Below, one piece after another: positions 933 to 20,103 of a stretch of 20,103 nt of DNA. The position numbers and the translations under genes are program-made. The first letter of the stretch is position 1. Every line of letters begins with the position of its first letter. Origin of the DNA: Thermoproteota archaeon (GTDB lineage: Archaea; Korarchaeota; JAOZGF01; JAOZFZ01). The notes under the pieces were generated by a model that was not told where the DNA came from, searched no databases, and worked only from the letters and a program-made list of their open reading frames with translations. The DNA is taken from the NCBI GenBank assembly GCA_027492035.1, contig JAOZFT010000024.1:1-20103 (forward strand), written 5' to 3'.

Positions 933-936
933 GGAG

Positions 937-1526: not shown

Positions 1527-1590
1527 GAAAAAGGGAAAGATTTAAATCTTAATGTAGCACCCTCAAAAATTTAATTCTTTCCCCTTTTTC
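1527..1590. promoter_or_regulatory. Inverted repeat formed by two opposed BRE+TATA-like elements in a divergent intergenic region
   Basis: 1527-1547 gaaaaagggaaagatttaaat versus reverse complement of 1569-1590 gaaaaaggggaaagaattaaat (one indel, one mismatch), 21 nt spacer. Confidence 0.55.
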
Positions 1591-1626
1591 AGTTTCTTCT
1601 ACTTTTCGAAAGAGGCAACTTTTAGA

Positions 1627-1887: not shown

Positions 1888-1917
1888 AGAGGAGGAAAAA
1901 GGCATTAGAGAAGACAT

Positions 1918-1932
1918 AGAAAAATTTAAATA
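1918..1932 (+). promoter_or_regulatory. Putative archaeal BRE/TATA promoter for the small protein-ATPase-ATPase operon
   Basis: agaaaaaTTTAAATA about 45 nt upstream of ATG 1978; the core gaaaaatttaaata recurs upstream of cysD. Confidence 0.45.
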
Positions 1933-1977
1933 AGGGGGATTGTGTAGAAAGAAGAAATAGTGAAGGGTGTTAATGAA

Positions 1978-2256
1978 ATGACCGGAGAAAAAGAAAAGAA
2001 AGGTGTAAGTGAAGTTTCGAAAGCTGTAAAAGAAGTTTTTTATGGAATGGCTTCCCATGCAGTAGTTAGACAAATGATGAAGACAAGAATGTACCTAGAA
2101 CACTTGTTTATGTTAATAACACTGGGAGACATGCTTGGAATGCCAATACTTCCACCTTACTACTCACTTAAACTTCTACCTTATGCATTGCCTAACATAA
2201 AGACTTGGAAGAGAAGATTGTTCAAGGAAAGAGATGTAACAGATATGCTTTACTGA
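1978..2256 (+). CDS. Small CstA/ArsA-associated hydrophobic protein (cory-CC-star-like), paralog 2
   Basis: LEHLFMLITLGDMLGMPILPPYYSLKLLPY..W..R resembles the small proteins encoded between cstA and arsA-like genes. ATG 1978 (after AAGGGTG) preferred over GTG 1960. Confidence 0.8.
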   Translation: MTGEKEKKGVSEVSKAVKEVFYGMASHAVVRQMMKTRMYLEHLFMLITLGDMLGMPILPPYYSLKLLPYALPNIKTWKRRLFKERDVTDMLY

Positions 2257-2273
2257 AAGAAAAGGCGAGAACA

Positions 2274-3284: not shown

Positions 3285-3286
3285 AA

Positions 3287-4673: not shown

Positions 4674-5339
4674 ATGAATTTAAAGAAGGAATTTCTAAAA
4701 CTGTTGAGGGAAGATGAGGAATTCAAGTACGCCGTAGCAGGTTTCATAGGGATGAATGAAATCCTTAAAAAACTTGACAAACACGAAAGAATCATAATTG
4801 AACTAAGAGAAGACTTTAACACATTAAGAAGAGACTTCAACAGAATGCTTGAAGAAATAAAAATAATTAATCTCAGGTTGAACAGAGTTGAAAAAACCCT
4901 GGAAAAACTTACTCTAGACATTGAGGAAGAGGCTAGATCGATACTGAGTTATAGGCTAAAAAATGAGGGAATAAATATCCAAGTGGAACCTTTAACTTTA
5001 AAGGAAACAGAAATAAACCTTTACGGCGCCTCAAACAATATTTGCGTAATAGGAGAAGCAACAGTTAGGGCAGGATCAAACCTACTGGACGAATTAGAAG
5101 AAAAAATTAAGATTTTACAGAGAAAACACCCTCACCTACTCAAAGGAAAAACTATTTTAGTTATTTACACCTCATTAGCTACACCTGACCTTATAAAGAA
5201 AGCAAAAGAGAAAAAAGTATGGGTTCTAAAAGCCACAGGAGACATTTTTAAACCTGAAAAATTAATGAAGAAACAGCTATTGCAACGTAAAGAAAGAAAC
5301 AAAGAAAACACCAACAGTAAATGCATAGGAAAAAATTAA
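4674..5339 (+). CDS. Archaeal coiled-coil protein with C-terminal restriction-endonuclease-like (PD-(D/E)XK) domain, DUF3782/paREP-like
   Basis: Typical N-terminus LKKEFLKLLREDEEFKYAVAGFIG, heptad coiled coil, then EINLYG...IGEATVR (degenerate nuclease motif). Confidence 0.75.
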   Translation: MNLKKEFLKLLREDEEFKYAVAGFIGMNEILKKLDKHERIIIELREDFNTLRRDFNRMLEEIKIINLRLNRVEKTLEKLTLDIEEEARSILSYRLKNEGINIQVEPLTLKETEINLYGASNNICVIGEATVRAGSNLLDELEEKIKILQRKHPHLLKGKTILVIYTSLATPDLIKKAKEKKVWVLKATGDIFKPEKLMKKQLLQRKERNKENTNSKCIGKN

Positions 5340-5589: not shown

Positions 5590-5805
5590 TTGAAAGAAAA
5601 AGTTACGATAAAGATACCTAAAGAACTTTACTTGAAGTTAAAAGCTATGATAAAAGGTACTGGGTTCTCCAGCGTCACAGAATTCATAGTTTTCACTATG
5701 AGAACAGTGGCTATGGGTGGTAAAATATCAGAAAAAGCAAAATTTAAGAAAGAGGAACTCAAAGAGATAAGGGAAAGACTGAGAAAATTAGGTTATCTTA
5801 AATGA
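5590..5805 (+). CDS. Ribbon-helix-helix (CopG/Arc/MetJ) transcriptional regulator
   Basis: KVTIKIPKELYLKL..GFSSVTEFI RHH pattern; AAGGTGA RBS; TTG start; C-terminus ERLRKLGYL. Confidence 0.85.
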   Translation: MKEKVTIKIPKELYLKLKAMIKGTGFSSVTEFIVFTMRTVAMGGKISEKAKFKKEELKEIRERLRKLGYLK

Positions 5806-5821
5806 ACATTGGAAACGTTAA

Positions 5822-5837
5822 AGGAAAAATTTAAATA
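5822..5837 (+). promoter_or_regulatory. Putative BRE/TATA promoter of the cysD operon
   Basis: aggaaaaaTTTAAATA upstream of cysD, same element as at 1918-1932. Confidence 0.45.
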
Positions 5838-5893
5838 CTTTTACACTCCAATTAGAGCCTTAATTTTGACTCTGATTGGAGTGCAGAAAAACA

Positions 5894-6718
5894 ATGAATA
5901 GGAACCTAACTTACCTAGATGAATTAGAATCAAAAAGTATTTACATAATAAGGGAGGCATATAGGAGATACAGAGACAAATTAGCTGTCCTTGTTTCTTG
6001 GGGTAAAGATTCCACTACTCTTTTGTATTTAACTAGGAAAGCTTTCTTCGGCGAAGTTCCTATTCCTGTTATGCATATAGATACTTCTTATAAATTTAGA
6101 GAAATTTATGAGTTCAGAAATAGGTTAGTTAAGGAGTGGAACTTAAAGTTATTAATTGCAAAAAATGAAGAAGCCTTAAAACAGGGCATGAGCCCAGGAA
6201 AAGGAAGGTTTCAATGTTGCACAGCATTAAAGACACAGGCTTTGAAGCAAGCAATAAAGAAATTTAAACTTAAGGCTCTGCTTTTAGCTATACGGAGAGA
6301 TGAACATGGAATTAGAGCTAAAGAAAGGTACTTCTCTCCACGTGATTCGCATTTCAAGTGGAACTATTTAAGTCAACCTCCTGAACTTTGGGAGCAATTT
6401 AACCAAGTAACGGATGAAGAAACCCATGTCAGGGTTCACCCTATGCTTCACTGGCTTGAAATAGATATTTGGCGCTATATTCAAAGAGAAAAAATACCTA
6501 TTGTTCCTTTATATTTTTCTGGGGCGAGGAAGCTAGGGTATAGATACAGGAGCATAGGTTGCGAGCCATGCTGTATCCCTATCCCTTCAAATGCTAAGAC
6601 AGTGAAAGAGGTTATAGCTGAACTGGAAAGAACAAACGTCCCAGAAAGAGCTGGAAGAGCTCAAGACAAAGAGAAAATGTACATGATGGAAAAATTAAGG
6701 GCCCTGGGGTACATGTAA
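5894..6718 (+). CDS. cysD: Sulfate adenylyltransferase subunit 2
   Basis: LDELESKSIYIIRE, SWGKDS PP-loop, HIDT, RRDE..RAKERYFS, QPPELW, RVHP, YRSIGC. ATG 5894 (GGAGTG RBS) preferred over TTG 5876. Confidence 0.95.
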   Translation: MNRNLTYLDELESKSIYIIREAYRRYRDKLAVLVSWGKDSTTLLYLTRKAFFGEVPIPVMHIDTSYKFREIYEFRNRLVKEWNLKLLIAKNEEALKQGMSPGKGRFQCCTALKTQALKQAIKKFKLKALLLAIRRDEHGIRAKERYFSPRDSHFKWNYLSQPPELWEQFNQVTDEETHVRVHPMLHWLEIDIWRYIQREKIPIVPLYFSGARKLGYRYRSIGCEPCCIPIPSNAKTVKEVIAELERTNVPERAGRAQDKEKMYMMEKLRALGYM

Positions 6719-6942
6719 TGCATGAAACAAGAACTAGGTCGTTAATTAAAGCTTTAACTTGGAGAGTAATTGGAATGTTTGTTTTAGGCAGTTTAGCATG
6801 GATTATAACTAACAACACTTTTCAAACTACCACTTTAACTGTTTCTTTTCATTTAGTTCAATTCACTCTCTACTACTTCCATGAAAGAATCTGGAATTAC
6901 ATTAAGTGGGGGGTAACTGATGGACAGAAAAAAGAAACGTAG
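6718..6942 (+). CDS. DUF2061 small membrane protein
   Basis: ETRTRSLIKALTWR...YYFHERIW..IKWG signature; TAATG coupling to cysD. Confidence 0.88.
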   Translation: MHETRTRSLIKALTWRVIGMFVLGSLAWIITNNTFQTTTLTVSFHLVQFTLYYFHERIWNYIKWGVTDGQKKET

Positions 6943-7024
6943 ATGAAAACTTAAAACATACCAAGAGGTAGGAGGAACCAAAAGAAATGTTGAAGCTAAA
7001 ACACAAAAGACGGAGGCTAGGGAT

Positions 7025-8217
7025 ATGAATATAGTTATTGTTGGACATGTAGATCATGGTAAATCAACTTTAATAGGGAGACTTCTTTATGACACGGACT
7101 CTATACCTGAGCAAAAACTGGACGAAATAAAACAAACCTGTGAAGCATTAGAGCGTAAAATGGAATTTGCTTATGTAGTTGACGCCTTAGAAGAAGAAAG
7201 AAACCGTGAAATGACAATTGACACAACCCAAACATTTTTTAGAAGCAAAAAAAAAGTTACACCATTATAGACGCCCCAGGTCACAAGGAATTCCTAAAAA
7301 ACATGGTAACTGGTGCTTGCCAAGCAAATGCAGGATTACTTATAGTTGATGTAGAGAAGGGGGTGCAAGAACAAACAAAAAGACACGCTTACATTCTGAA
7401 ACTCTTAGGAATAAATCAACTTATAGTAGTAATTAACAAAATGGATTTAGTTAATTTCAGCAAAAAGAAGTACGAAAAAGTCAAAAAGGAAGTGTTGAAG
7501 TATTTAAAAGAAATTGGAACCACTCCCAACTTTATTATACCGGTTTCTGCCTATTATGGAGACGGTGTAACTAAAAATTCGGAAAGAATACCCTGGTATA
7601 AAGCTGAAACCGTCATAGACGCCTTAGATGCATTGAAAGAGCCTTTTAAAACTTATGATTTCAGACTCCCAATCCAAGACATTTACAAACTTAGTAACAA
7701 AAGAATCTATGTTGGCAACATACTGTCCGGAATGGTTAAGGTGGGGGAAAACGTAAAAATTTTTCCTTCAGGTGAAGAAGCAAAGATAGAGCAGATAATT
7801 ACTTTTGAAGGCAAAATGAAAGAAGCTGAAAAACCTAAAGCAATAGGGGTAACTTTGAACAAGCAAGGGTTCTTAAGAGGAAACGTAATAACTAAAGGGA
7901 AAAAACCCATTGTCACTAACGAAATAGAACCAACTGTTTTCTGTTTACTAAATGAAGTAAAGGAAAAAGAGCAATACATTTTCAGGTGTGTAACCCAGGA
8001 AACTAAATGTAAAATTGAGAGAGTAGTGGAGAAAATCGATGTTAACACTTTAGAGAAAATAAAAAACACAACCGCTTTAAAGGAAACAGAAGTTGGAAAA
8101 GTAAAGATTCACTTAAACAAACCAGTAGTTGTGGAAAAATTCGAAAACTTACCTGAACTAGGCAGGTTTATACTTGAAAAAAACGGAGAAATAGTTGCAG
8201 GTGGAATAATAACATGA
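7025..8217 (+). pseudogene. cysN: Sulfate adenylyltransferase subunit 1 (EF-Tu-like GTPase), split by a 1-nt frameshift in an A9 tract (real or assembly error)
   Basis: GHVDHGKST and TIDT in 7025..7270; [18 protein letters not shown] and NKMD follow in the -1 frame after A9 at 7247-7255. One extra A restores a continuous protein of about 397 aa with no fused CysC domain. Confidence 0.88.
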
Positions 8218-8909
8218 TAATTCTTGCTTTAGATGGTTTAGAATATAAATATGTGAAAGAGTTCAAATGTAAAAATTTAATGCAGAAATACTGTGGTAAA
8301 ACAGACATATCTGAGTTTTCAGAACCAAGAACAGTAGTTATTTGGTCATCATTCCTTGCAGGGAAAAACCTGGAAAAAGAGATACTTAAAACAAAAAATT
8401 TTTGGGAGTTTAAACTAAACCCAAAAGAAACCTTTTTTTCAAAGTTTAAGAAATGGAAAGCAATAGATGTTCCAGGACTTACCTATAAGTCAGAAAAACA
8501 TAAAAAAGAAAGAGAACTTCTAAAAAAATTTTTCAATGGAGAAATCACTATAAGGGAATATGATAAAGCAGCTTTTAAACACCATAAAGAGAATAAGGCT
8601 GAATTCTTTAATGCAATAAAAGAGAATTACCAAGTTACAATGGGTTACTTCGCCTTAGCTGACACAATCGGGCACTTAAGTTTTGGGGTTAAACCGAAAA
8701 TGAAGATAGTTTACAAAGAACTTGACAAAATAGCTGAGAAAATTGGGGAAAATAACAAACTACTAATAATTTCTGATCATGGAATGAAAGCTGTTGGAAG
8801 ATACGGAGACCATTCTAATTACGGATTCTGGAGCACAAATTTTTTTGCAGACCTGGACAGGCCGAAAATAACTCAATTCAGGAAAATAATTGAGCTCTGT
8901 AAAGGTTAA
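8214..8909 (+). CDS. Alkaline phosphatase superfamily protein (nucleotide pyrophosphatase/phosphodiesterase-like, minimal)
   Basis: ILALDGL, putative Thr nucleophile in PRTVVIWSSF, DTIGH, ISDHG, GDHS metal ligands; ATGA overlap with cysN. Confidence 0.85.
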   Translation: MIILALDGLEYKYVKEFKCKNLMQKYCGKTDISEFSEPRTVVIWSSFLAGKNLEKEILKTKNFWEFKLNPKETFFSKFKKWKAIDVPGLTYKSEKHKKERELLKKFFNGEITIREYDKAAFKHHKENKAEFFNAIKENYQVTMGYFALADTIGHLSFGVKPKMKIVYKELDKIAEKIGENNKLLIISDHGMKAVGRYGDHSNYGFWSTNFFADLDRPKITQFRKIIELCKG

Positions 8910-8996
8910 AAAATTTAAAAGAATCAGGAACAAATTAACAAAGTTTCTTTATAACTTCTCTAATTAAAAATTAAGGGAATAAAAAGGAGTTCAGAA

Positions 8997-10826
8997 TTGT
9001 GCGGAATAGCTGGCTACTACGGTTTAAACAATAAAAACTTACTGGAAAAAATGTGCAAAGTAATTAGACACAGGGGACCTGACGATGAAGGATACTACAC
9101 ATGTTCAAAAATAGGTTTATGTAACAGACGTTTAAGCATAATAGATGTGAAAGGGGGACATCAACCTATACATAACGAAGACGGAACAATCTGGATAACG
9201 TACAATGGCGAAATATACAACTACAAAGAGTTAAGCAGGGAGTTAGAAAAGAGACATAATTTTTACACTAACTCAGACACTGAAGTAATTGTTCACTGTT
9301 ACGAAGAATATGGGGAAGAATTTGTCAACAAATTAAACGGAATGTTTGCTTTCGCTATATGGGACTCAAATAAGGAAGAACTGCTTATTTACCGTGACCG
9401 TTTCGGAATAAAACCACTATATTATTACTATAACGGTGAAAAACTCTTTTTCGGTTCAGAAATAAAAGCAATACTTCAAAGTGAAGAAGTGGAAAGAACC
9501 CCAAACGACAAAGTAATTTATGAATTTCTTGTCCACGGTTGGCACGACCATACAGAAGAAACCTTCTTCAAAGGAGTAAAGAGATTAATGCCAGCACATT
9601 ACCTAAAAGTAAACAGTAAAGGATTAAAAATTAGAAAGTACTGGGAAATAAAGAAACTAAACCAAAAAATAGAGTCCAAAGAGGAGAAAGACAAAGAACT
9701 AACTGAAAAATTCTACAACTTATTCCTAGATTCAGTAAAGAAAAGACTTATAAGTGAAGTCCCTGTAGGAACGTGTTTAAGCGGCGGAATGGATTCTTCA
9801 TCCATTGTATGCATAATAAATAAACTCTTAAGGAAAGGAATAAGCAAAGAAGTTATAGGGGAGAAACAAAAAACTTTTTCAGCAGTCTATAAAGAAAAAG
9901 AAGCAGATGAAACCCCCTATATTGAAGAAGTTATTAAGTTCACAAACTCAGAAAAAAACTTCACCCACCCAAACGCTGAAGAACTCTGGAAAGAACTTGA
10001 CAAAATAATATGGTACCAAGAAGAACCTTTCGGAAGCACAAGCATTTATGCTCAATGGTGTGTAATGAAAGAAGCAAGCAAAAAAGTTAAAGTAGTACTT
10101 GACGGGCAAGGAGGAGACGAATTACTTGCAGGATACACTCACTACTACATATACTTCCTAAAAGATTTACTGAAACAAAAAAGAATCATTCAGTTCATAA
10201 AAAACTTCTTCTTAGGTTTAGACCTCTTCTACAAAGACATACTGCACCACCTACTTAACAAAAGAAAAGAGAAAAAACTTATACAGGAAATGTTGAACAA
10301 AGAATTCATAAAGAAATATAAGGGTGAAGTTAAAACACCATGGAAAATCAAAAACTTAACAACTTACCTTCTAAATTCATTAACACAAATAAGTATACCC
10401 CACCTTTTAAGGTATGAAGACAAAAACGCAATGGCACACTCTATAGAATCAAGGGTACCTTTCCTAGACCACAGACTCGTAGAATATGTTTTCAACACAC
10501 CGGAAAACCAAAAAATAAGAAACGGATGGACAAAGTACATTCTGAGAAAAGCCATGAAAGGGGAGATACCCGAAAAAGTAAGGAAAAGAAGGTCAAAACT
10601 AGGATTTGCAACTCCGGAAGTAAAATGGCTCAGGGAATTAAGTAAAGAAATAATTGAAACCTTCGAAACAGAAACGTTCAAACAAAGAAAGTACTTTAAC
10701 CAAGAAAAGGTAACTAAAAATTTTGAGGAGTTTGTGAAGGGGAAATTTACACTGCAACACTCAATATTCTGGCGAGTAGTAATACTTGAAAAATGGCTAA
10801 ACCTATTCATAGATGAGAAAAAGTAA
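8997..10826 (+). CDS. asnB: Asparagine synthase (glutamine-hydrolysing) family amidotransferase
   Basis: MCGIAG Ntn N-terminus (TTG start, AAGGAG RBS), HRGPD, RRLSIID, NGEIYN, LSGGMDSS, GQGGDEL, ESRVPFLD. Confidence 0.95.
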   Translation: MCGIAGYYGLNNKNLLEKMCKVIRHRGPDDEGYYTCSKIGLCNRRLSIIDVKGGHQPIHNEDGTIWITYNGEIYNYKELSRELEKRHNFYTNSDTEVIVHCYEEYGEEFVNKLNGMFAFAIWDSNKEELLIYRDRFGIKPLYYYYNGEKLFFGSEIKAILQSEEVERTPNDKVIYEFLVHGWHDHTEETFFKGVKRLMPAHYLKVNSKGLKIRKYWEIKKLNQKIESKEEKDKELTEKFYNLFLDSVKKRLISEVPVGTCLSGGMDSSSIVCIINKLLRKGISKEVIGEKQKTFSAVYKEKEADETPYIEEVIKFTNSEKNFTHPNAEELWKELDKIIWYQEEPFGSTSIYAQWCVMKEASKKVKVVLDGQGGDELLAGYTHYYIYFLKDLLKQKRIIQFIKNFFLGLDLFYKDILHHLLNKRKEKKLIQEMLNKEFIKKYKGEVKTPWKIKNLTTYLLNSLTQISIPHLLRYEDKNAMAHSIESRVPFLDHRLVEYVFNTPENQKIRNGWTKYILRKAMKGEIPEKVRKRRSKLGFATPEVKWLRELSKEIIETFETETFKQRKYFNQEKVTKNFEEFVKGKFTLQHSIFWRVVILEKWLNLFIDEKK

Positions 10827-10892
10827 TTTTAAATTAAAAAGTGTTGGAAGTTAAGATTAAACTGCAATCCTGAACATGAAGGGTTTTTGTTT

Positions 10893-12824
10893 ATGTGCGG
10901 CATATGCGGCTTCGCTTTTGAAGATAAAAAACTAATAAAGGAAATGTGCAATATTTTTAAAGCATAGGGGACCTGACGATAAGGGGTATTTCCTAGATAA
11001 AGGAATATCTTTAGGGAACACAAGATTAAGCGTAATAGATTTAGAAACAGGGAAACAACCTATTTACAATGAAGACGGTTCAATGGTGATTGTGCAAAAT
11101 GGAGAAATTTACAATTATAGACAAATCAGGAAGGAACTTATCAATTTAGGGCATTCATTTTACACAAAATCAGATACAGAAGTTATACTCCACGCTTATG
11201 AGGAATGGGGAACCAAAGCACTTAATAAACTCAATGGAATGTTTGCATTTGCAATATGGGACTCCAACAGAAAGGAATTATTCCTAGCCCGAGATAGATG
11301 CGGAATAAAACCTTTATATTACACCTTAACAAAAAACAAAACCCTTCTTTTCGCTCAGAAATAAAAGCCTTACTTTTATATGAAAAAATTAAACCTAAGC
11401 TAAGTTTAGAAGGACTTCACTATTACTTAAACCTCCGATTCTTACCTGGAGAAGTAACAATGTTTAAAGGAATCAAGAAACTTTTACCTGGCCATTACCT
11501 CTTATATAAATTATCAAGCAAGAACATGGAAGTAAGTAAGTATTGGGAAGTAAAGGTTTCACCGGAGGAGCATACCGAAAGTTTTTTTGTTAAGAAGTTA
11601 AGGGAAATTTTGAAAGAATCTGTAAAAAGACACCTTATAAGTGACGTCCCTGTTGGAATATATCTTTCTGGAGGCATAGACAGCAGCTCAATAGTAGCTT
11701 TTGCTTCGCAAGTGTCAGAAGAACCCGTTAAAACTTTTACAATGGGATTCAATGAACCCTCAGATGAATTAAGAGACGCTAAACAAGTGTCAGAATTTTT
11801 TGAAACTGAACACTATGAATTAGTAATAGACTCTGATTTGATGAAAGATTACCCTGCTATGATATGGTACGCTGACACACCGAAAAGAAACCTTTACCCT
11901 TACTACATCGCCAAAGTTGTAAGGAAACATGTAAAAGTAGTTCTTGGAGGACTTGGAGGTGATGAACTTTTCGCAGGTTACGAATGGAAATACCAATTCG
12001 CAGAAGATACTACGGAAGAGCGTTCAAAAATACCAAACAACCTCAAATTCTCGCTTAGAAAAGAAATTCCAGAATTCATAAAGTATGTAACAAGGTATGG
12101 TTCACTTCATGAAATAGACCTTATCCACAATTTAAGGAGAGCAGCATACATAGACAACGATGTCAAACAGTACCTGCTCATAATGAGCTTAGATGAAGTC
12201 TATGAAAATAATTATTTGAAAGAGAAAATATATGGCGAAGAAATTCAGAAAATTAAATTACCGCAACTAGAAGATATATTTAAGCCATTTTTTGAAGATA
12301 ATAATCTTAACTTAATTGATAAAATTCTTCTTGCAGATTTTAAAATTAAAATGGTGGATGATTTTCTTTTTGTGGAGGATTCAATGTCCTCCGCTAACTC
12401 CTTAGAGTCAAGAGTACCTTTTTTAGACAAAGAACTTGTGGAATTCGTTTTTACTATACCATCAAGGTTTAAATACAGAGAGGGAAGAGGGAAATATATT
12501 TTTAAGAAAGCAATGCAGGGAATATTACCTAAAGAAGTAATAAAGAAAGAAAAACAAGGATTTAGCAGTGACGTAGTAATTAGATTTGAAAGAGAAATAC
12601 GGGAAATAGCAAAACAAATTCTAATGAATGGATACTTAGTAAAGGATAATTTAATTAAGGGGGGCTACATAGAGAATATACTTAATTACAGAACTTCTCG
12701 CAGCTTAACTAAGCATTACATTACAGTATGGAATCTCTTAACCCTTGAAATATGGTATAGAATGTACATTAAACAAGGAAAAATTCCAAAACCTCTTACA
12801 CTAAATAAATTGGAAGCAATTTAG
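10893..12824 (+). pseudogene. asnB: Second asnB-family amidotransferase with two frameshifts (+1 near 10954-10958, -1 near 11355)
   Basis: ATG 10893 gives MCGICGFAFEDKKLIKEMCNI; removing one T from T5 gives LKHRGPDD..RLSVID..QPIYNEDG, joining ORF 11083; adding one T at gct/cag gives FASEIKA, joining ORF 11298 (LSGGIDSS, GLGGDEL, ESRVPFLD). Confidence 0.88.
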
Positions 12825-12963
12825 TTTTAAAAACCAAAAAGCGTTTTTGGTAAAAATATAAAGAGACAGAAAACTTCTTTATGTTTAAATTTTATCTTTT
12901 TGACGGCATTGATTAAAACCAAATGTTGCAAAGTAGAAAATATAAGAAGAAGGGGTTTATCCT

Positions 12964-13491
12964 TTGCAAGAATGGAAAAAGTTAATTTTAGAAATTTTTG
13001 AAAAGAAAAATCTAAAAAACCCTCTTCAAAAAATATTGAGGAAATCAGGTTTAAAAATAAATGAATTTGCAAGAATTTCAGAGATTCCTGAAAGTACATT
13101 ATATAAAATCTTTTCAGAGGAAGAGAAAGACATTAGGCTGTCTACAGTTTTTAAAATAATGGATGGAATAAAAAGGATCTACGGAACAGAAAGTCCATCC
13201 TTAAAAAGCACTATAGGGGTTATTACAGCCAGTTTTGTTCTGGATCAATTACCAAATGCTTTAGAAGTTAAAGGTAAAACTTACTATATAAAGGAGTATC
13301 CGGCTTTAACAATAGAGGAAGAGATAATACAAGGAATAAAGGCTGAAAGAGACGGAGTGGAGGCTATCATTTGTGGACCTGTTGCAGCAACCACACTGGA
13401 GAAAATAGTTACAGTACCGGTTATCTCGGTTAAGTTCGACAAAGAAGTTGTAATGAGAGCTGTACATCAGGCAATGGAGAAAATAGATTAA
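12964..13491 (+). CDS. XRE-type HTH transcriptional regulator with C-terminal ligand-binding (PrpR_N-like) domain
   Basis: INEFARISEIPESTLYKIF..DIRLSTV HTH; C-terminal AERDGVEAIICGP..VPVISV; directly upstream of comA. Confidence 0.8.
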   Translation: MQEWKKLILEIFEKKNLKNPLQKILRKSGLKINEFARISEIPESTLYKIFSEEEKDIRLSTVFKIMDGIKRIYGTESPSLKSTIGVITASFVLDQLPNALEVKGKTYYIKEYPALTIEEEIIQGIKAERDGVEAIICGPVAATTLEKIVTVPVISVKFDKEVVMRAVHQAMEKID

Positions 13492-13669
13492 AAGGAATCT
13501 GAATTAATAAAACTAAAAAAGTTTTCTCCCAGAAAAAACGAAGGAAAAACTAATTGTTTTTTGCTTGTCTTTTCTCGACATAGTAAATTGCACCCTAACC
13601 CTTTTTTATGAAGAAAAGAAAAATTTTTCCTTAATGTAATTTTTCTATTTTATTTTTTTCTTTATAAGG

Positions 13670-13692
13670 AAAAATAGTAATATTTAAATATA
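13670..13692 (+). promoter_or_regulatory. Putative TATA box of the comABDE operon
   Basis: aaaaatagtaataTTTAAATA in a 260 bp AT-rich spacer, about 60 nt before the comA start. Confidence 0.4.
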
Positions 13693-13751
13693 AAAAATAC
13701 TTAAGCGAGTAAAGAAAAACTTACTAAAGTTTTCGGCAAAAGGGGAAGGGT

Positions 13752-14528
13752 TTGAAGATAAAAAACTTTGAAAAATTAATAGTTCCTGAGAGAGAACCTA
13801 AACCTAGAAGTAAAGGAATAACTATGGTGTTAGATAAAAACCTTGGGTTAAGAGGAATAAGAGACTTAGTTGAAACTGCCGGGGAGTACATAGACATTAT
13901 GAAGTTTGGTTGGGGCACAACACGGATGTTACCCAAGAGATTATTAAAGAGTAAAATAAGGATTTTAAGGGATAATGAGATAGAGGTATGCAATGGAGGA
14001 ACATTAACAGAATTTGCATTTTTACAAGGTAAATTTAAGGATTACCTAGGTGAAATGGCAACAATGGGTTATACGGTGGTTGAGATTTCAGATGGAACCA
14101 TAAATATGGGCTATGAAGAACGTTTGGAACTTATAACCCAAGCAAAAGAGCAAGGGTTTAAAGTTGTTACTGAAGTAGGCAAGAAAAGCCCTTCAGAAGA
14201 CTCCAAACTAACTGTACAAAAAAGGGTAGAACTGATAAAGAGAGACTTAAAGATGGGAGTAGATAAAGTTGTTTTAGAAGCTAGAGAAAGTGGAACTGTA
14301 GGAATTTTCGACAATAGGGGGGAAGTAGTTATTCCGAGGGTGTTATCCATAATTAAAAGCGTAAATGTTAATGATTTAATATTTGAAGCCCCTAAAAAAA
14401 AGCAACAAGTATATTTAATCTTAAACATAGGTCCTAATGTGAATTTAGGAAACATCAGCCCTTTAGATGTGATATCCGTTGAAACATTAAGGAGGGGACT
14501 TAGAGGAGATACATTTGGTAAGGTGTAA
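13752..14528 (+). CDS. comA: Phosphosulfolactate synthase
   Basis: KPRSKGITMVLDK, KFGWGT, GGTL, EISDG, EVGKK, EARESG, FEAP, VNLGNI, ETLRRGLRGDT. Confidence 0.96.
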   Translation: MKIKNFEKLIVPEREPKPRSKGITMVLDKNLGLRGIRDLVETAGEYIDIMKFGWGTTRMLPKRLLKSKIRILRDNEIEVCNGGTLTEFAFLQGKFKDYLGEMATMGYTVVEISDGTINMGYEERLELITQAKEQGFKVVTEVGKKSPSEDSKLTVQKRVELIKRDLKMGVDKVVLEARESGTVGIFDNRGEVVIPRVLSIIKSVNVNDLIFEAPKKKQQVYLILNIGPNVNLGNISPLDVISVETLRRGLRGDTFGKV

Positions 14529-15171
14529 AATAAGTTTCAATGTGAAAAGTATCGGGAAAGATGACACTGTTGTGGTTGTTGATGTTTTACGTGCTACTAG
14601 CACTATTGTTACAGCTTTGGCCAATGGTGTAGAGGAGATCATTCCTGTAAGTTCTATTGATGAAGCTTTTAAACTTAGAAGGAATGGTTATTGCTTAATT
14701 GGGGAAGAAAAAGGTGTGAAAATAAAAGAATTTGACTTTAGTAATTCACCTACTGAAATAATGCAAAATCCTTGTAAAAAAATCGCTTTAAAAACTACAA
14801 ATGGAACAAAAATTATTAAGGAAGTAGAGGAAAGGACAAACCAGGAAGTATTTATGGGCTCAACATTAAACCTTTCTTACTTAGCTGAAAGACTTAAACA
14901 AACAGAAAAAATAAACATAATAGCTGTGGGAGGGAGGAAGGGATTCATAGAAGATTTAGCAGTAAGTATAGCTTTATTTACTAAATTGCAGAATTTACCT
15001 TTGAAGAAGGAAATTGTTAAGGAATTAATTATTAATTCAGAAGCAGCGAAACATTTAGCTAAAATAGGTTACTGGAAAGACGTTGAATTTGTTCTTCAGA
15101 TAGACCTATACCCAATTGCCCCTATTCTAAAAAAGGGAAAAATAGTTTTGGAGCAAAGCAGCTACAAGTGA
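14515..15171 (+). CDS. comB: 2-phosphosulfolactate phosphatase
   Basis: VVVDVLRATSTI, GE..G..FDFSNSP, TTNGT, IED; overlaps comA by 14 bp. Confidence 0.93.
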   Translation: MVRCKISFNVKSIGKDDTVVVVDVLRATSTIVTALANGVEEIIPVSSIDEAFKLRRNGYCLIGEEKGVKIKEFDFSNSPTEIMQNPCKKIALKTTNGTKIIKEVEERTNQEVFMGSTLNLSYLAERLKQTEKINIIAVGGRKGFIEDLAVSIALFTKLQNLPLKKEIVKELIINSEAAKHLAKIGYWKDVEFVLQIDLYPIAPILKKGKIVLEQSSYK

Positions 15172-15177
15172 ATAGAA

Positions 15178-15669
15178 ATGGGGGAAATTGACAAGGAAAT
15201 AGTTAAGTTTTTGGTGGAGTCAGGTATAGACTTCGTTTGCAGCGTGCCATGTATGCTTTTGAAAGGAATACTGGAAGAAATAGAGAAGACAAACTTGAGA
15301 CATGTTAGAGTCAACAGGGAAGAAGAAGGAGTGGGAGTATGCGCAGGAGCGTACTTGGCCGGTAAGAAACCAGCATTAGTAATTCAAAATTCAGGTTTAG
15401 GTAACTCAATAAATGCTTTACTTTCCCTTACAAAGTTTTATCGTTTAGGGTTATTTATTTTAATGAGCCATAGAGGAGATAAATACGAAAAAATTAAAGC
15501 GCAGGTTCCAATGGGAGAGGCAACACCCAAATTGTTAAAGCTCTTAAACATCGAATATGCCAAAGTTACGGAGCCAAACCAATTGTTTCTGATAAAAAAC
15601 CTTGTTAAGAAAGCATTTAAAGAAGAAGACATTAAAGCTGTTTTACTTTCAAGGTCGTTATGGCTATGA
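15178..15669 (+). CDS. comD: Sulfopyruvate decarboxylase alpha subunit
   Basis: SVPC, REEEGVGVCAGAYLAG, QNSGLGN, SHRG..E..AQVPMG; in an operon with comAB. Confidence 0.94.
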   Translation: MGEIDKEIVKFLVESGIDFVCSVPCMLLKGILEEIEKTNLRHVRVNREEEGVGVCAGAYLAGKKPALVIQNSGLGNSINALLSLTKFYRLGLFILMSHRGDKYEKIKAQVPMGEATPKLLKLLNIEYAKVTEPNQLFLIKNLVKKAFKEEDIKAVLLSRSLWL

Positions 15670-16214
15670 AGAGAATAGATGTTATAAGGGAAATTTCTAA
15701 AAGGAAAGGATTAATAATTTGTAATTTAGGATTTCCTAGTAGAGAACTTTATAGCATAAAGGATAAAAATACAAATTTTTACATGTTAGGCTCAATGGGA
15801 ATGGCTAGTTCCATAGGGTTAGGAGTTGCATTGTGCCAAAAAGAAAAAGTTTACATTATTGAAGGTGACGGTTCAATACTTATGAACTTAGGGTCCCTAG
15901 CCACAATAGCAGCCTACGCAACACCTAACTTAAACTTAATAGTAGTGGACAACGGGGTTTACGGTTCCACAGGAAAACAACCAACACACACAGCTAAAGT
16001 GGCAGATTTAAAAAAGATAGCTAAAGGAGCAGGAAATAAAAAGGTTTTTGAAGTAAAGTCGATAGAGCAACTTAAAGAAGCCTTAGAACAAGGTGGGCCT
16101 CTTATTATTGTAGCAAAAGTAAACCAAGAATCAAAAAAGGTACCTGAGGTACCTCTTGAAGCTGAGTTTATAAAGAAAAGATTTATGAACGCTATTTATG
16201 AATTAAATAAGTAA
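15666..16214 (+). CDS. comE: Sulfopyruvate decarboxylase beta subunit (TPP-binding)
   Basis: NLGFPSREL, FYMLGSMG, GDGSILMN..DNGVYGSTG.Q TPP motif, IKKRF; ATGA overlap with comD (alternative ATG at 15660). Confidence 0.94.
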   Translation: MKRIDVIREISKRKGLIICNLGFPSRELYSIKDKNTNFYMLGSMGMASSIGLGVALCQKEKVYIIEGDGSILMNLGSLATIAAYATPNLNLIVVDNGVYGSTGKQPTHTAKVADLKKIAKGAGNKKVFEVKSIEQLKEALEQGGPLIIVAKVNQESKKVPEVPLEAEFIKKRFMNAIYELNK

Positions 16215-17996
16215 ATTGTTTAGGGAACTAAGCTTTAACGATTTCAATTTTTCAGTTGAGGGTTTACCAGTAATTCTGTCCCAATTCCTTATTTTGTAAT
16301 ACTTTCTAAGCATGAAATTAACATCCGGCACCTTATTCTTAGCTCCTCCTTCCCTTAAAGGTTTCAAAAAAATGGAGGGGAGATAATCATCCCTAGCATT
16401 AATTCCAAGTTTATTGTTTAATAACCTTTTCAAGTTAAATATCCTTTCCCCGATCAGAAGCAAGTCTTGAACAGTGATTCTCCATCCCATTAAACAATTA
16501 AGAGCTTCAGTTATTAATTTTGGTGATATTACACAGAATTGACATAGAATCAGGGAATTATAGATACTCATCCAATTCTGAGTTTTAACTGTAGTTTCTG
16601 CCTTGCCTTTTTCAGAGAATCTCTCCCCTGGATAGATTCCAATTTCAGGTATTTCTTTACCCATATCTACTTTATGCATATCACCTTGCAAATGACAAGC
16701 CCCTCTCGGTGAAGTCGCGTAACAGAGAGCCATTCCAAAAAAGGCGCGTGGATCATGAAAAGGCACTTCTAAGCCTTTAACCTCTGCTGCAAATTTTTGT
16801 AACCCATGTCTTAATTGAAGATTGGAAGTTCCTTCAGCTAAAGAATCACCGAAACCTTTACGGTAAGCTATCTGTGTTATAAGCGCTAAAACAGTGTCAA
16901 TATCGCCCCATTTCAATGTTACACCACCTGTTTCACTTTTACTGATTTTTCCAGTTTCAAAAAGGTAGGTGGCGAAAGCAATAACGGAACTACAGCTAAT
17001 GGTGTCTAAACCCATTTGATTGCATAAATAATTAGCATGAACAATTTTTTCAAGGTTCTGATTCAAAAAGAGCGAACCGAAACCACAAATTGTTTCATAC
17101 TCCGGAGCATCAATTAAAATAAATTTTCCGTTCTTTTTCAACTTAACAATTTTTCCGCAAGCAATTGGACAGTAAAAACATGCCTTGCTTCCCACAACTA
17201 GTTTCCTTAAAGCATCCTTACTTATCAATTCACTTTCAAATTTTCCTTGTAGGAAATATTTGTTAGGCATATCTCCAAGTTCTTGTGCAACTTCCACTAA
17301 CCAGCTTGTCCCATATTTACGCAAAATATCACTGGAGGGGTTATTTCGAATTTCCGTCACAAATTTTTTTATAATAGGTTTAATTTCTGGCTTAATGGGT
17401 TTCTTCTCAGGTTTAGGTATTATAATTGCCTTTAATTTTTTAGAACCCATCACCGCACCTAAACCTGTCCGGCCAGCAGCTCTACCGCCATCAACAATAA
17501 TTGAAGCGAATTTAACAAGGTTTTCACCTGCAGGTCCTATACTCGCAACACTAGCGTTTTTAAGGCTGAGGTCTCTCAATATTTCGTTTTGAACATCTAG
17601 AGCTCCAAGACCCCAGTATTCAGTTGCATCTAATATTTCACTTCCCTTTTCTGTAATTTTAAGCATTACTGCACTAGACGGCTTACCTGTAATAAAAATG
17701 CCGCTAAAACCTATAAATTTAAGATATGACGCAAATTTGCCACCTACACTGGATTCTGCCCAAATATGTGTAAGAGGAGACTTAGAAGTTACTGAGCATT
17801 TACCGGAGCAAGGAAGCCCTGTACCTGTAAATGGACCTGTTAAAAAAAGTAAGGGAGCCTCAGCATGGAAAGGAGAAAGTGAAGACTTAATTTTCCCGAA
17901 AAGAAGGCGAGCTGCTAAGCCGCTTCCACCCAAAAATTTTTTATAAAATTCACTATTAAGGTGAACTATTTTAGCTTGTTTATTCCCCAGATCCAC
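16203..17996 (-). CDS. aor: Aldehyde:ferredoxin oxidoreductase family (tungstopterin, 4Fe-4S)
   Basis: KSPLT, IGPAGEN, AAGRTGLGAVMGSKKLKAI, CFYCPIACG, EYET, GLDTIS, DPR, RGACH. The true start may lie upstream near 18032 (see findings). Confidence 0.93.
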   Translation of the reverse strand: MDLGNKQAKIVHLNSEFYKKFLGGSGLAARLLFGKIKSSLSPFHAEAPLLFLTGPFTGTGLPCSGKCSVTSKSPLTHIWAESSVGGKFASYLKFIGFSGIFITGKPSSAVMLKITEKGSEILDATEYWGLGALDVQNEILRDLSLKNASVASIGPAGENLVKFASIIVDGGRAAGRTGLGAVMGSKKLKAIIIPKPEKKPIKPEIKPIIKKFVTEIRNNPSSDILRKYGTSWLVEVAQELGDMPNKYFLQGKFESELISKDALRKLVVGSKACFYCPIACGKIVKLKKNGKFILIDAPEYETICGFGSLFLNQNLEKIVHANYLCNQMGLDTISCSSVIAFATYLFETGKISKSETGGVTLKWGDIDTVLALITQIAYRKGFGDSLAEGTSNLQLRHGLQKFAAEVKGLEVPFHDPRAFFGMALCYATSPRGACHLQGDMHKVDMGKEIPEIGIYPGERFSEKGKAETTVKTQNWMSIYNSLILCQFCVISPKLITEALNCLMGWRITVQDLLLIGERIFNLKRLLNNKLGINARDDYLPSIFLKPLREGGAKNKVPDVNFMLRKYYKIRNWDRITGKPSTEKLKSLKLSSLNNLLI

Positions 17997-18284
17997 CTTT
18001 AATAGAGGAGGATTTGACTCGTTAGTAACCGTTCCAGTTCACCTTAAACCTAAAATCCATCCATAAGAGACCATGAATAACTGAAAGAATCCGCTGAATT
18101 TTTCATTTGCTGAAGAAAAGAATTTATAAATTTAAAAACTGAAAAAACTTTCAAGAGGAAAAGTGGTTAAGTTGAATTTTAAAATTTATGCAGCAAAATC
18201 CCTGAACAATTTTCCTATACACAATAGAGGCTGCAAGACATTACTGTAAATTTTCTGTTTAATAGAGAGGAAGAGGGAAAAGCA

Positions 18285-19013
18285 GTGGGGATACTGTTAA
18301 GAATTGATGTGGACAACCCGTACGGCTACAGTGACCTGTTAAGGAAAACATTTAATTTCTTTGCATTAAACTATTTTTTCCCGCCTTTGCCTAAGTTACA
18401 CCTTTCTAATTTTAAAAAGCTTCTTGAAGATTTAGAAGATAGAGGGATCCCAGTTAATTTCTTCTTTAAACCTAAAACTTTACCTTCTAAAGAATTATCT
18501 GTGCAAATAATTAAAAGAAACGAAGTAGGCCTACATGCAGTTCAAGTGCACACTTTCGAAAAATTTGAGGAAGAACTAAAAAAGGTCAATGCCAGATTTG
18601 GAAATAAAGTAAGGGGGTTCAGTAAACACGGACACTGGAGAAATTGGGTGGGCGAAAGAGGCTCTGTACCAGGATATAACCCAAACAAACTTTTAAAATA
18701 CGCAAGGAAGGCGAAACTGAAATATTTTGCAGGGAATTATGAAAATCCAACATATAAACCTGAAATCGTGCAGGGAGTGCATTATTTCCCCTCTGCATTT
18801 TGGCTAAATGAAAGATTCAGAAACAAAAAATTCACGTTAAATTGGCTCTTCCAAAACAGTCAAGTAAGAGATATAGTGGTGCTTATGCATCCTTGGGAAT
18901 GGGTTACATTAAAACAGGTAAGGGAAGCATATGAAAAAATTTTAACAAAGACTGAAACTTTCAAAAAATTCAGCGAAGTAAGTGACAGCTTTAGAACTTC
19001 ACCGAAACTTTAA
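18285..19013 (+). CDS. Polysaccharide deacetylase (NodB/CE4-like) family protein
   Basis: LRIDVD, FFF, EVGLHA, SKHG, LMHP motifs; GTG start after GAGGG. Confidence 0.7.
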   Translation: MGILLRIDVDNPYGYSDLLRKTFNFFALNYFFPPLPKLHLSNFKKLLEDLEDRGIPVNFFFKPKTLPSKELSVQIIKRNEVGLHAVQVHTFEKFEEELKKVNARFGNKVRGFSKHGHWRNWVGERGSVPGYNPNKLLKYARKAKLKYFAGNYENPTYKPEIVQGVHYFPSAFWLNERFRNKKFTLNWLFQNSQVRDIVVLMHPWEWVTLKQVREAYEKILTKTETFKKFSEVSDSFRTSPKL

Positions 19014-19087
19014 GGAGTAAATAATTCTTAAATAGCGAGGTTCTAGTTCAAAAATTTTTAAAGGTTTAAGGTGGAGGGGAATTAAGT

Positions 19088-20103
19088 CTGGCCATTAATA
19101 TTTTAATAACTGAAGCTTCACAGAGGAACAGTTTAGCAATTGCTAGAACACTTGGCTCTAACGGATTCAACTGTATACTTGCAGATGAAAAAAAATTCGC
19201 TCCTTCATTTTATTCCAAATACTGCAAAGCCAGATATAGATACTTCCCTCCAACCACTAACCCTGAGAAATTTTTAAGTAGCATAATAAGGATAGTAAAG
19301 GAAAGTAAAGCCTCTCATATTCTTCCCGTAGGCGTAAACACAGTAGTTCCATTGTCTCTGTACCTTGACAAAGTTAGACAATACATCAACATTGCTTTAC
19401 CCCCCTACAAAACATTACTTAAGGCTCATAACAAAGCAGAAACGTTAAAAATAGCAAGAGAAGTGGGAGTACCTACACCTAAAACTTACACCCCAAAAAG
19501 TCGCTTAGAAGTTATAAATCTGTCCAGGAAAGTTCAATACCCCGTTATAATTAAAAGAAGAAAGGGGTCAGGGGTATATAAAGGGGTTCGAATAGCTAGA
19601 ACCCCTTCAGAACTAGTTAAGAAATATATGGAGATAGAAAATATGCAGGGGGACCACTTAATTGAAGAACAAAAGTTACCGTTGATCCAGGAATATGTAC
19701 CTGGAGAGATTAGAGATGTTTGCGTACTTTTTAATAGAGGTGAACCACGAGCCGCATTGGTTCAAAGAAGAATATGGACATGGCCACCTAAAGGAGGAGT
19801 TGGTATTCTTAATGAAACGGTGAAGGACGATAAAACGTTGAAACTTGCCTTGAAACTTTTAAAAAAAATGAAATGGCACGGTGTAGCACAGGTTGAGTTT
19901 AAAAAGGATGAACATGGAAATCCCCTCCTCATGGAGGTTAACCCTAAATTTTGGGGCACTTTAGAACTTTCAATAAAGGCAGGGATAAATTTTCCTTTGT
20001 TAATAATAGAAATGATGAAGAGGGGGGATATACCAGCAAAATTCAAATACAAGGTAGGCATTAGATTTTATTGGCCTCTACCTTACATAACAAAGTACCT
20101 CAT
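19088..20103 (+). CDS. ATP-grasp carboxylate-amine ligase (D-aspartate-ligase-like family), 3' truncated by the window edge
   Basis: Absent from the ORF track. Manual translation is open to the window end: INILITEASQRNSLAIARTLG..SKYC..NKAET..GVPTPKT..YPVIIK..GSG..QEYVPG..QVEFK..MEVNPKFWG. Probable CTG start. Confidence 0.9.
   Translation, partial: MAINILITEASQRNSLAIARTLGSNGFNCILADEKKFAPSFYSKYCKARYRYFPPTTNPEKFLSSIIRIVKESKASHILPVGVNTVVPLSLYLDKVRQYINIALPPYKTLLKAHNKAETLKIAREVGVPTPKTYTPKSRLEVINLSRKVQYPVIIKRRKGSGVYKGVRIARTPSELVKKYMEIENMQGDHLIEEQKLPLIQEYVPGEIRDVCVLFNRGEPRAALVQRRIWTWPPKGGVGILNETVKDDKTLKLALKLLKKMKWHGVAQVEFKKDEHGNPLLMEVNPKFWGTLELSIKAGINFPLLIIEMMKRGDIPAKFKYKVGIRFYWPLPYITKYL

Follow-up and report, generated by a model that had tools for sequence, protein, structure and literature searches.

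A com gene cassette between sulfate-activation and glycan-tailoring genes in an accessory island of a non-methanogenic archaeon: a possible sulfonate supply for surface glycans

What would an archaeon without methanogenesis do with genes of the coenzyme M (CoM) pathway that lie between sulfate-activation and glycan-tailoring genes? This question was raised by contig JAOZFT010000024.1 (C22) of the Thermoproteota archaeon assembly GCA_027492035.1, the whole of which, 20,103 nt, was analyzed and is called the window here. The part of the window from 4.3 to 20.1 kb was found to be a real, lineage-specific mosaic accessory island of a non-methanogenic archaeon, in which we distinguish three predicted modules. 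Module i, cysD–DUF2061–cysN–miniAlkP, would be a sulfate-activation set and elsewhere lies inside archaeal cell-surface glycan loci. Module ii, consisting of two asparagine synthase B-type genes (asnB1 and asnB2), a CE4-like deacetylase gene, and an ATP-grasp ligase gene, would be a sugar-tailoring set. Module iii, a helix-turn-helix (HTH) protein gene followed by comA, comB, comD, and comE, appears to separate the two halves of module ii, together with a convergent gene for an aldehyde:ferredoxin oxidoreductase (AOR). That the com cassette of this island supplies a sulfonate for a surface glycan is plausible but unproven, and we propose it tentatively. The first-pass annotation of the window had read these genes as possible biosynthesis of a sulfonate-decorated glycan; its gene inventory and gene placement were recovered in full, and its overall interpretation was supported in part.

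Genes were called from the listing of open reading frames (ORFs) together with Pfam and NCBIfam scans (Table 1). The source genome is an archaeal bin of 1.87 Mb in 42 contigs, 93.3% complete and 1.7% contaminated, and genome-wide absences are read against this completeness as probable, not proven. The tetranucleotide profile of C22 correlated with that of the largest contig (666 kb) at r = 0.989, and four sub-regions of C22 gave correlations of 0.954–0.979, against a mean of 0.969 for the 5-kb background. Mis-binning of C22 was rejected because its tetranucleotide profile matches the rest of the bin. The 5′ end of C22 joins contig C33 through a 127-nt overlap, and this join is backed by synteny with a genome of the same family (G001); the overlap between contig ends indicated an assembly of short-read type. 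The 3′ end had no overlap of at least 21 nt with any contig of the bin. From CstA on C33 through the ArsA pair, the source genome and G001 were syntenic at 77–88% identity. Within the window the synteny covered positions 6–4307 only, ending with ArsA2, and the genes that follow in G001 mapped to four other contigs of the source genome. This stop at 4307 indicated that, among the genomes sampled, only the source genome has the segment that begins with the DUF3782-family gene hyp4674 and runs to the contig end. As the first gene beyond the synteny, hyp4674 forms the left boundary of the island, which is absent from the nearest relative. The ArsA/Get3 pair is conserved at 81–83% in G001 (C49:4920-7010), where the first copy has an internal TAG.

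The com genes are clear members of their families. The predicted ComA, the single copy in the genome, matched the curated equivalog model over its full length and above the cut-off. ComB scored far above its Pfam cut-off, and its best equivalog scores (161 against 235 and 133.6 against 175) were both under the cut-off. ComDE is predicted to be a sulfopyruvate decarboxylase, with the beta subunit just under the cut-off; both subunits scored better on these models than on the phosphonopyruvate decarboxylase model (91.7 bits for ComD and 144.3 bits for ComE, cut-off 312.5). The four genes are tightly packed in pathway order, and the HTH gene lies 261 nt upstream of comA. In the PDB, the HTH protein matched HipB and a regulator of the NtrC family, both weakly. 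Together with an unlinked Ldh_2 dehydrogenase, ComA, ComB, and ComDE would convert phosphoenolpyruvate (PEP) and sulfite via sulfolactate to sulfoacetaldehyde. Judged from its gene content, the genome can thus plausibly reach sulfoacetaldehyde, without a known CoM consumer.

Searches for McrA and MtrA, both positive in two methanogen controls, gave no match in the genome, and no protein exceeded the cut-off for MMP16/ComF; the best score, 152 bits against 364, came from the single COG1900a gene, on contig C9. The lack of all three in a genome of this completeness suggested that CoM is an unlikely end product, and the predicted gene set included neither a complete CoM pathway nor a CoM-dependent metabolism. 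The first-pass annotation, which had found no mcr, mtr, hdr, or comF-like gene in the window and had treated CoM synthesis as the alternative reading, was borne out on both points by the window scans and the genome searches. We nevertheless considered genuine CoM synthesis, in which the C9 protein would thiolate sulfoacetaldehyde and CoM would serve as a thiol cofactor or protectant without methyl-CoM reductase. The C9 gene is a clear family member (PF01837/COG1900a, L-ASST-like, 466.7 bits, one copy); however, a single COG1900a gene would be expected anyway for homocysteine synthesis. To our knowledge, there is no CoM-dependent enzyme in archaea outside the alkyl-CoM reductase systems. Passages of PMC12068725 describe MMP16 as the main CoM synthase and state that L-ASST (COG1900a) may partly compensate for its loss in Methanosarcina when sulfide is given, and PMC12713407 links the CoM level to protection from oxidative stress in methanogens. 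With McrA, MtrA, and MMP16 all missing, we regard CoM synthesis in this archaeon as very improbable.

Module i carries a putative heterodimeric ATP sulfurylase, with CysD above the cut-off and an adjoining CysN split by one frameshift in a run of nine A residues; cysD was the only PAPS_reduct-family member of the genome. The AlkP-family enzyme named by the first-pass annotation was confirmed by its PF01663 match and is called miniAlkP here. We found 627 homologues with identities of up to 72%, titled "alkaline phosphatase family protein" and coming from metagenome-assembled genomes (MAGs) of Aenigmarchaeota, Micrarchaeota, and Thaumarchaeota; the ESM Atlas held only unnamed Phosphodiest clusters, mostly archaeal. 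The AlphaFold2 (AF2) model of miniAlkP (pLDDT 96.7) weakly resembled ENPP5, ENPP6, and ENPP4 as the best solved folds (E of about 1e-4, TM 0.45–0.54), and no PDB match by sequence was better than E 0.03. The residues D7, T40, D150, H154, D188, H189, and H200 were invariant in 33 sequences, and we read them, from the motif pattern and without structural superposition, as a probable two-metal site with a Thr nucleophile. By this fold and residue set, miniAlkP belongs to the AlkP superfamily and is of the nucleotide pyrophosphatase/phosphodiesterase (NPP)-like type.

The cysD–cysN–miniAlkP trio was compared in the nine other genomes that had close homologues of miniAlkP (4 of 200 relatives, plus 2 from a small phylum represented by 17 genomes and 5 from another represented by 351). 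MiniAlkP adjoined cysN in all nine, hence in 10 of 10 genomes with the source genome counted, and cysD was adjacent to cysN–miniAlkP in eight, the ninth contig starting inside cysN. The neighbors of the trio in these genomes included flippases, sulfatase-family proteins, epimerases/dehydratases, RmlC/D, UDP-glucose dehydrogenase, GT2 and GT4 glycosyltransferases, PMT_2, and phosphoglucomutase, and TauE-family permeases lay nearby in four of the nine. A convincing adenosine 5′-phosphosulfate (APS) kinase (87.7 bits), together with a second strong PAPS_reduct member (181 bits), was found in one of these genomes; two others had kinase matches of 25–27 bits, and none of the five trio genomes that are at least 90% complete had any match to APS kinase. 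Eight of the nine, and the source genome as well, thus had no clear APS kinase and no reductase of the CysH type. The trio is therefore a conserved unit in glycan neighborhoods, mostly without the canonical users of APS. Word searches of open-access text gave no description of it. In one trio locus a HIT-family protein is encoded between cysD and cysN (L118:11940-12386, genome G179); the HIT family includes enzymes acting on APS.

Which step would follow sulfate activation? In the source genome, the best APS kinase score was 19.7 bits, below the cut-off; no PAPS_reduct member other than CysD was present as a CysH-type reductase; AprA scored at most 36.8 bits against 641; and the NIR_SIR sulfite reductase gave no match. 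MiniAlkP might transfer a sulfuryl group from APS, act with a thiol on the way to sulfite, hydrolyze APS, or remove pyrophosphate. In one form of our proposal, ComAB(C)DE would be a sulfonate line for the glycan, fed by an activation independent of 3′-phosphoadenosine 5′-phosphosulfate (PAPS), with miniAlkP as the consumer of APS; miniAlkP might then be an APS-dependent sulfuryl transferase or provide the missing step towards sulfite. We consider this specific form doubtful. A related problem appears in passages of PMC6286981, which report CysDN in some lineages of anaerobic methanotrophic archaea (ANME), describe the in situ source of sulfite as unclear, and raise the sulfonate of CoM as a possible use.

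The remaining flank of the com cassette belongs to module ii. The predicted CE4-like protein had no PF01522 match, and among its 41 homologues, with names from MSBL1, ANME-1, and Promethearchaeota, PF01522 was detected in two. Its AF2 model (pLDDT 91.2) gave CE4/NodB deacetylases as top Foldseek matches (E 8e-9 to 1e-6, TM 0.5–0.63), and the family profile matched the Bacillus anthracis deacetylase 4m1b at E 0.0019; the term "polysaccharide-deacetylase-like" in the first-pass annotation thus holds at the level of the fold. The invariant residues of the family include R6, D8, D10, H84, H115, and H202, and the H-x-x-x-H motif varies at its second His. No close homologue was found in 200 relatives. 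In the best 80 of 225 confirmed metagenome stretches, an ATP-grasp gene lay directly downstream of the CE4-like gene in 12 loci and within 3 kb in 2 more (14 in total), and an AsnB gene lay directly upstream in two (L131 and L135), where the AsnB was 38–42% identical to asnB2 and 29% to asnB1. Pfam annotation of 78 ORFs from 11 of these loci revealed GT1/GT4, UDP-GlcNAc 2-epimerase, UDP-glucose dehydrogenase, AglB/STT3, flippases, PIG-L, methyltransferases, PHP proteins, and large Phosphodiest/Sulfatase proteins. The CE4-like, ATP-grasp, and AsnB genes are a genuine glycan-tailoring set. The neighborhoods of both sets, in the CE4 metagenome loci and around the trio in nine other genomes, agreed with the earlier assignment of the flanking genes to glycan-tailoring modules. 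Large AlkP-superfamily proteins (454–546 aa, Phosphodiest/Sulfatase; Table 1) were found repeatedly in glycan loci of both the CE4 type and the trio type and are candidates for the transfer or removal of glycan sulfate or phosphate.

The two sulfur-oxyanion modules, each present in a single copy in the 1.87-Mb genome, are separated by about 5 kb and share one strand. Because they are the only two such modules of the genome and lie close together, and because the com cassette stands between AsnB and CE4 genes that touch elsewhere, a functional tie is more than an idle suggestion. We propose that sulfoacetaldehyde would be a small sulfonate building block rather than a CoM precursor, and that this sulfonate and the activated sulfate of module i would place negatively charged sulfur-oxyanion groups, either sulfate esters, sulfonates, or both, on a surface glycan. 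The com cassette would then be the sulfur counterpart of the phosphonate supply by PEP mutase and phosphonopyruvate decarboxylase.

Several observations count against this proposal. The ORF, Pfam, and NCBIfam scans detected no gene for a glycosyltransferase, a flippase/oligosaccharyltransferase, or a nucleotide-sugar enzyme in the 20.1-kb contig, and the window has no aminotransferase, reductase, or nucleotidyltransferase for sulfoacetaldehyde. The glycosyltransferases and flippases that a glycan pathway would need, and that the first-pass annotation had pointed to as a check, were thus missing from the contig itself; they were found in other genomes, near genes homologous to those of modules i and ii, and the source genome has a second glycan cluster with a GT4 on contig C38. 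The ComC candidate, the Ldh_2 dehydrogenase on contig C20, is unlinked and scored 285 bits against the sulfolactate dehydrogenase cut-off of 500, so that the comC gene sought in the genome was found as a candidate below the equivalog cut-off. Since APS kinase, CysH, AprA, and sulfite reductase were not found, known enzymes cannot link the APS made by CysDN to sulfite, the substrate of ComA. The 261-nt upstream gap and the regulator of its own suggest that comABDE may be an independent unit. Moreover, the arrangement of com genes with glycan modules is a singleton, observed in the source genome only: none of 90 ComA loci had a cysD/N, miniAlkP, CE4, ATP-grasp, AOR, or HTH gene, and com genes were present in none of the 9 trio loci and none of the 80 CE4 loci, the latter also lacking CysD, CysN, miniAlkP, AOR, and the HTH gene. 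Finally, cysN, asnB2, and the start of the ATP-grasp gene are damaged in the assembly, and the island may be undergoing decay.

These results also bear on a check named in the first-pass annotation, the conservation of the com–asnB–ATP-grasp linkage. It was absent from all 90 ComA, all 80 CE4, and all 9 trio loci, and genomes of the same family and the same order encoded neither ComA nor the AlkP or CE4 protein. The principal alternative is that the modules lie side by side by chance, in a variable region of mosaic makeup. Working independently of the glycan genes, the com cassette would then make a soluble or lipid-linked sulfonate, either sulfolactate, isethionate, taurine, or a head group, whose purpose would be osmotic, related to stress, or the trapping of sulfite; module i would at most sulfate the glycan. 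The singleton linkage, the separate regulation of comABDE, and the synteny break beside a DUF3782 gene with fragmentary paralogs are all consistent with this alternative. Of the last, hyp4674 has three partial paralogs in the genome. The second glycan cluster (C38:142693-149778; L238:12186-19778), with GT4, hexapeptide acetyltransferase, methyltransferase, WbqC, DegT aminotransferase, and PglF-like dehydratase genes, ends in a 115-residue N-terminal ATP-grasp fragment followed by a DUF3782 paralog of hyp4674, which hints at rearrangement between such loci.

The distribution of ComA points in the same direction. The 90 loci comprised 10 from relatives and the best 80 of at least 592 confirmed stretches in a genome collection, where an 11-sequence alignment was used for the search; a single-protein query had given 148 pattern matches, none of which was confirmed. 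ComA was present in 10 of 60 relatives and absent from the genomes of the same family and the same order. Homologues in non-methanogens were widespread and in varied contexts (Bacillota, Chloroflexota, Aminicenantes, Pyrobaculum, Bathyarchaeia, and records titled as Asgard MAGs), most of the best 80 stretches being from Bacillota, Chloroflexota, and Aminicenantes. ComB was adjacent to ComA in 11 of the 90 loci, and ComD and ComE in 3 each, all archaeal. One actinobacterial ComA locus has an AsnB gene and a 28%-identical PAPS_reduct-family gene. In a tree of 91 rows (quick search, SH-aLRT support only), the placement of the window ComA was ambiguous between two groups, a pair from Pyrobaculum and Bathyarchaeia and a clade of Methanobacteriota, and the protein lay outside the ComA-TrmB clade of its own phylum, so that no donor can be named. 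In L207, L209, and L214 (genomes G015, G016, and G025), the same-phylum ComA carries a fused TrmB-type HTH domain at its C terminus, and a Sulf_transp-family membrane protein adjoins ComA in L209 and L210, with no ComB or ComDE nearby.

Two Asgard loci, in MAG records of Freyarchaeota and Jordarchaeia (L081:5542-11472 and L085:300-6232), bear on both readings. Each contains a row of seven genes in the order sugar-1-phosphate nucleotidyltransferase-like protein, CDP-alcohol phosphatidyltransferase, ComD, ComE, ThrC/cysteate-synthase-like pyridoxal phosphate enzyme, ComA, and ComB; the phosphatidyltransferase is archaetidylinositol-phosphate-synthase-like, at 137 bits against a cut-off of 180. 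From its predicted enzymes, this row looks like a pathway for a sulfonate-bearing head group or solute, a use that favors chance adjacency in the window. The clustering of com genes with conjugating enzymes is at the same time a parallel for com cassettes that feed more than a free cofactor. Chance adjacency leaves unexplained why the genome's sulfur-oxyanion modules, two in all, are co-located, and why the cassette stands between AsnB and CE4 genes that are adjacent in L131 and L135; we consider it somewhat unlikely, and retain the supply of a sulfonate to the glycan as our tentative proposal. Word searches of open-access text gave no report of com genes in glycan loci.

The first-pass annotation had also proposed a definite route from sulfoacetaldehyde to the glycan, which would be a special case of our proposal: the AOR makes sulfoacetate, the CE4-like protein frees a sugar amine, and the ATP-grasp ligase forms an N-sulfoacetyl amide. 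The three genes directly follow comE, the CE4 fold with its conserved Asp and His residues fits a deacetylase, and ATP-grasp enzymes join carboxylates to amines. However, the AOR gene is convergent with comE (12-nt overlap) and is one of nine AOR-family matches in the genome, the closest paralog, on contig C21, being 51.5% identical. Its closest solved relative was Pyrococcus furiosus AOR (1aor, 378.7 bits, against 246 for FOR and 197 for WOR5), and the GAPOR model gave 15.7 against 1300; the window enzyme is thus predicted to be an AOR proper of the broad-specificity P. furiosus type. An AOR gene stood beside ComA in none of the other 90 loci, and the adjacency of the window copy to the com genes carries little weight. 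The pairing of CE4 and ATP-grasp genes in 14 loci without a com gene further suggested that the usual acid substrate of the ligase is not a com product. Both the AOR step and the ATP-grasp step of this route were thereby weakened, and we judge the route very unlikely.

The damaged genes raised the further possibility that the island is decaying and largely non-functional, its cassettes having been gained laterally and now being lost without making any product. Three frameshifts in two genes and the missing canonical start of a third, the fragments of ATP-grasp and DUF3782 genes elsewhere in the genome, and, in an assembly of short-read type, a break outside any homopolymer are the evidence for it. 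In cysN, a -1 shift within the A9 run at 7247–7255 would join both frames; the run fits the A_AAA_AAA slippery pattern, and the shift gives the expected DxPGH G3 motif directly downstream. CysN homologues were uninterrupted in the nine other genomes, with 398–423 aa where complete. The cysN break may reflect an assembly error, transcriptional slippage or slippage resembling phase variation, or programmed frameshifting/read-through. In asnB2 the frame changes in a T5 run at 10954–10958 and returns near 11356, which is not a homopolymer. The ATP-grasp gene has no ATG, GTG, or TTG codon from the upstream stop (about 19067) to 19352, with its frame open from 19070; from 19094 on, the product is 57% identical over 336 residues to a 393-aa homologue encoded behind the CE4-like gene in L127, and some 57 residues are missing from its C terminus, since the contig stops within the gene. 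A purine-rich GGTGGAGGGG motif at 19070–19079, ahead of the start of this alignment, makes an ATT or CTG start possible.

In contrast to these three genes, comA, comB, comD, comE, cysD, miniAlkP, asnB1, and the CE4 and AOR genes are full-length and matched their models end to end, and the A9 break of cysN may be read through or be an assembly error. Single internal stops in other genes of the bin also indicated that consensus errors are possible: an AOR paralog at C21:20841-21989 is interrupted by a TAG, and a TAA splits a divergent AsnB-like gene at C9:5833-6633. We therefore consider a largely non-functional island quite unlikely. No tRNA or flanking-repeat signature of insertion was found for the com block; the only exact repeat was one 17-nt direct pair, at 10917–10933 in the 5′ end of asnB2 and at 13751–13767, exactly at the start codon of comA, which may be a chance match in AT-rich DNA or a trace of recombination.

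Table 1. Genes of the window with their positions, strands, and supporting matches; the last line gives AlkP-superfamily proteins of other loci
Feature	Position	Strand	Remarks
Two hypothetical genes	left end of contig, before ArsA/Get3 pair	+	
Tandem ArsA/Get3-family ATPase pair	2205-4309	+	copies 30% identical to each other
hyp4674, DUF3782-family protein	4674-5339	+	family assigned via C38 paralog with PF12644; window protein itself no Pfam match
RHH-like ORF, 71 aa, upstream of cysD	5590-5805	+	RHH_1 19.2 bits against cut-off 20.5, E 0.0012; weak; possible regulator by this match
cysD, sulfate adenylyltransferase small subunit	5876-6718	+	NF003587 324.9 bits against cut-off 195; PF01507 140 bits
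DUF2061 small membrane protein	6718-6942	+	PF09834 46 bits against cut-off 23.1
cysN, GTPase subunit	7025-8217	+	two frames, 7025-7270 and 7303-8217; GTP_EFTU on both pieces; CysN models match residues 1-303 of second piece
miniAlkP, 231 aa, AlkP superfamily (NPP-like)	8214-8909	+	PF01663 28.5 bits against cut-off 23; start overlaps cysN stop
asnB1, glutamine-dependent amidotransferase, asparagine synthase B family, intact	8997-10826	+	TIGR01536 504.5 bits against cut-off 267; GATase_7 and Asn_synthase
asnB2, second AsnB paralog	~10893-12824	+	two frameshifts; synthetase-domain ORF 11298-12824 intact
XRE-type HTH protein	12964-13491	+	HTH_26 25.1 bits; PrpR_N-like C-terminal part 21.8 bits, below cut-off
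comA, phosphosulfolactate synthase	13752-14528	+	TIGR03849 312.2 bits against cut-off 280; PF02679 299.6 bits, positions 1-243 of 243
comB, 2-phosphosulfolactate phosphatase family	14515-15171	+	PF04029 170.2 bits against 26.4; 14-nt overlap with comA
comD, sulfopyruvate decarboxylase alpha	15178-15669	+	TIGR03845 193.5 bits against cut-off 147.95
comE, sulfopyruvate decarboxylase beta	15660-16214	+	TIGR03846 219 bits against cut-off 221.5
AOR, tungsten-type aldehyde:ferredoxin oxidoreductase	16203-17996	-	AFOR_N and AFOR_C, Pfam 218 and 407 bits
CE4/NodB-fold protein, 242 aa	18285-19013	+	no Pfam or NCBIfam match; fold from structure model
ATP-grasp ligase, ATPgrasp_Ter-like	~19094-20103 (contig end)	+	PF15632 56-57 bits
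Large AlkP-superfamily proteins of other loci	L131:1782-3311, L135:2327-3856, L135:5051-6688, L119:10895-12535, L247:2662-4065, L249:13248-14609		

When the island was compared with the methanogen pathway of ComA, ComB, ComC, ComDE, and ComF/MMP16, the com genes were the shared part, with the Ldh_2 candidate for ComC encoded elsewhere, whereas the source genome lacks MMP16/ComF, MCR, and Mtr. In a methanogen-like locus (L212), the com genes are accompanied by ComC and a homocitrate-synthase-like gene, whereas here they lie in an island between sulfate-activation and glycan-tailoring genes. ComA is also used without methanogenesis in bacteria. Bacillus spores form sulfolactate via ComA and ComB, and ComA homologues, some with an adjacent ComB, are common outside methanogens; however, bacterial ComA loci lack ComDE, whereas the predicted pathway of the window continues to sulfoacetaldehyde. 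A bacterial route to CoM that starts from ComA is reported in PMC9457059.

The decoration of surfaces with phosphonates provides a chemical parallel. In this system PEP mutase and phosphonopyruvate decarboxylase act before the transfer to glycans or lipids. As would be the case in the window, a homologous thiamine pyrophosphate enzyme decarboxylates a C3 acid made from PEP and so yields a C2 aldehyde with an anionic group, the genes lie within surface-polymer loci, and ComDE appeared as a distant relative on the phosphonopyruvate decarboxylase model. The chemistry predicted here is that of a sulfonate, ComDE scoring far better on the sulfopyruvate models, and the window differs further in having no equivalent of the aminotransferase or cytidylyltransferase.

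A second parallel is the rhizobial NodPQ–NodH system for the sulfation of Nod factors, in which cysDN paralogs belong to a glycan-tailoring gene set. Both have a dedicated CysD/CysN pair among glycan-modifying genes and not with cysteine biosynthesis. NodQ, however, carries an APS kinase domain and is followed by a PAPS-dependent sulfotransferase, whereas no APS kinase was found in the source genome or in any of the five near-complete trio genomes, and the third partner here is an NPP-like AlkP-fold protein. AsnB-type amidotransferases have a role in uronamide or acetamidino formation, and the metagenome loci described above combine AsnB, CE4, and ATP-grasp genes with genes for GT1/GT4, AglB, flippases, and nucleotide-sugar enzymes. 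The set of the window differs from these in a CE4-like protein too divergent for detection by Pfam, in being split by the com cassette and the AOR gene, and in lying on a contig without a glycosyltransferase.

If the com cassette does feed a surface decoration, methane or alkane metabolism could not be deduced any more from com genes found in metagenomes, and a new class of sulfonated archaeal glycans would be expected. The significance of the cysD–cysN–miniAlkP trio stands independently of the com question. The trio is a concrete candidate for the use of activated sulfate in small-genome archaea. A review (PMC11625862) describes the sulfation pathways of polysaccharide sulfotransferases as relatively unexplored. 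Should the proposed role of miniAlkP be true, the trio would represent a widespread, so far undescribed archaeal route that places sulfur oxyanions on glycans.

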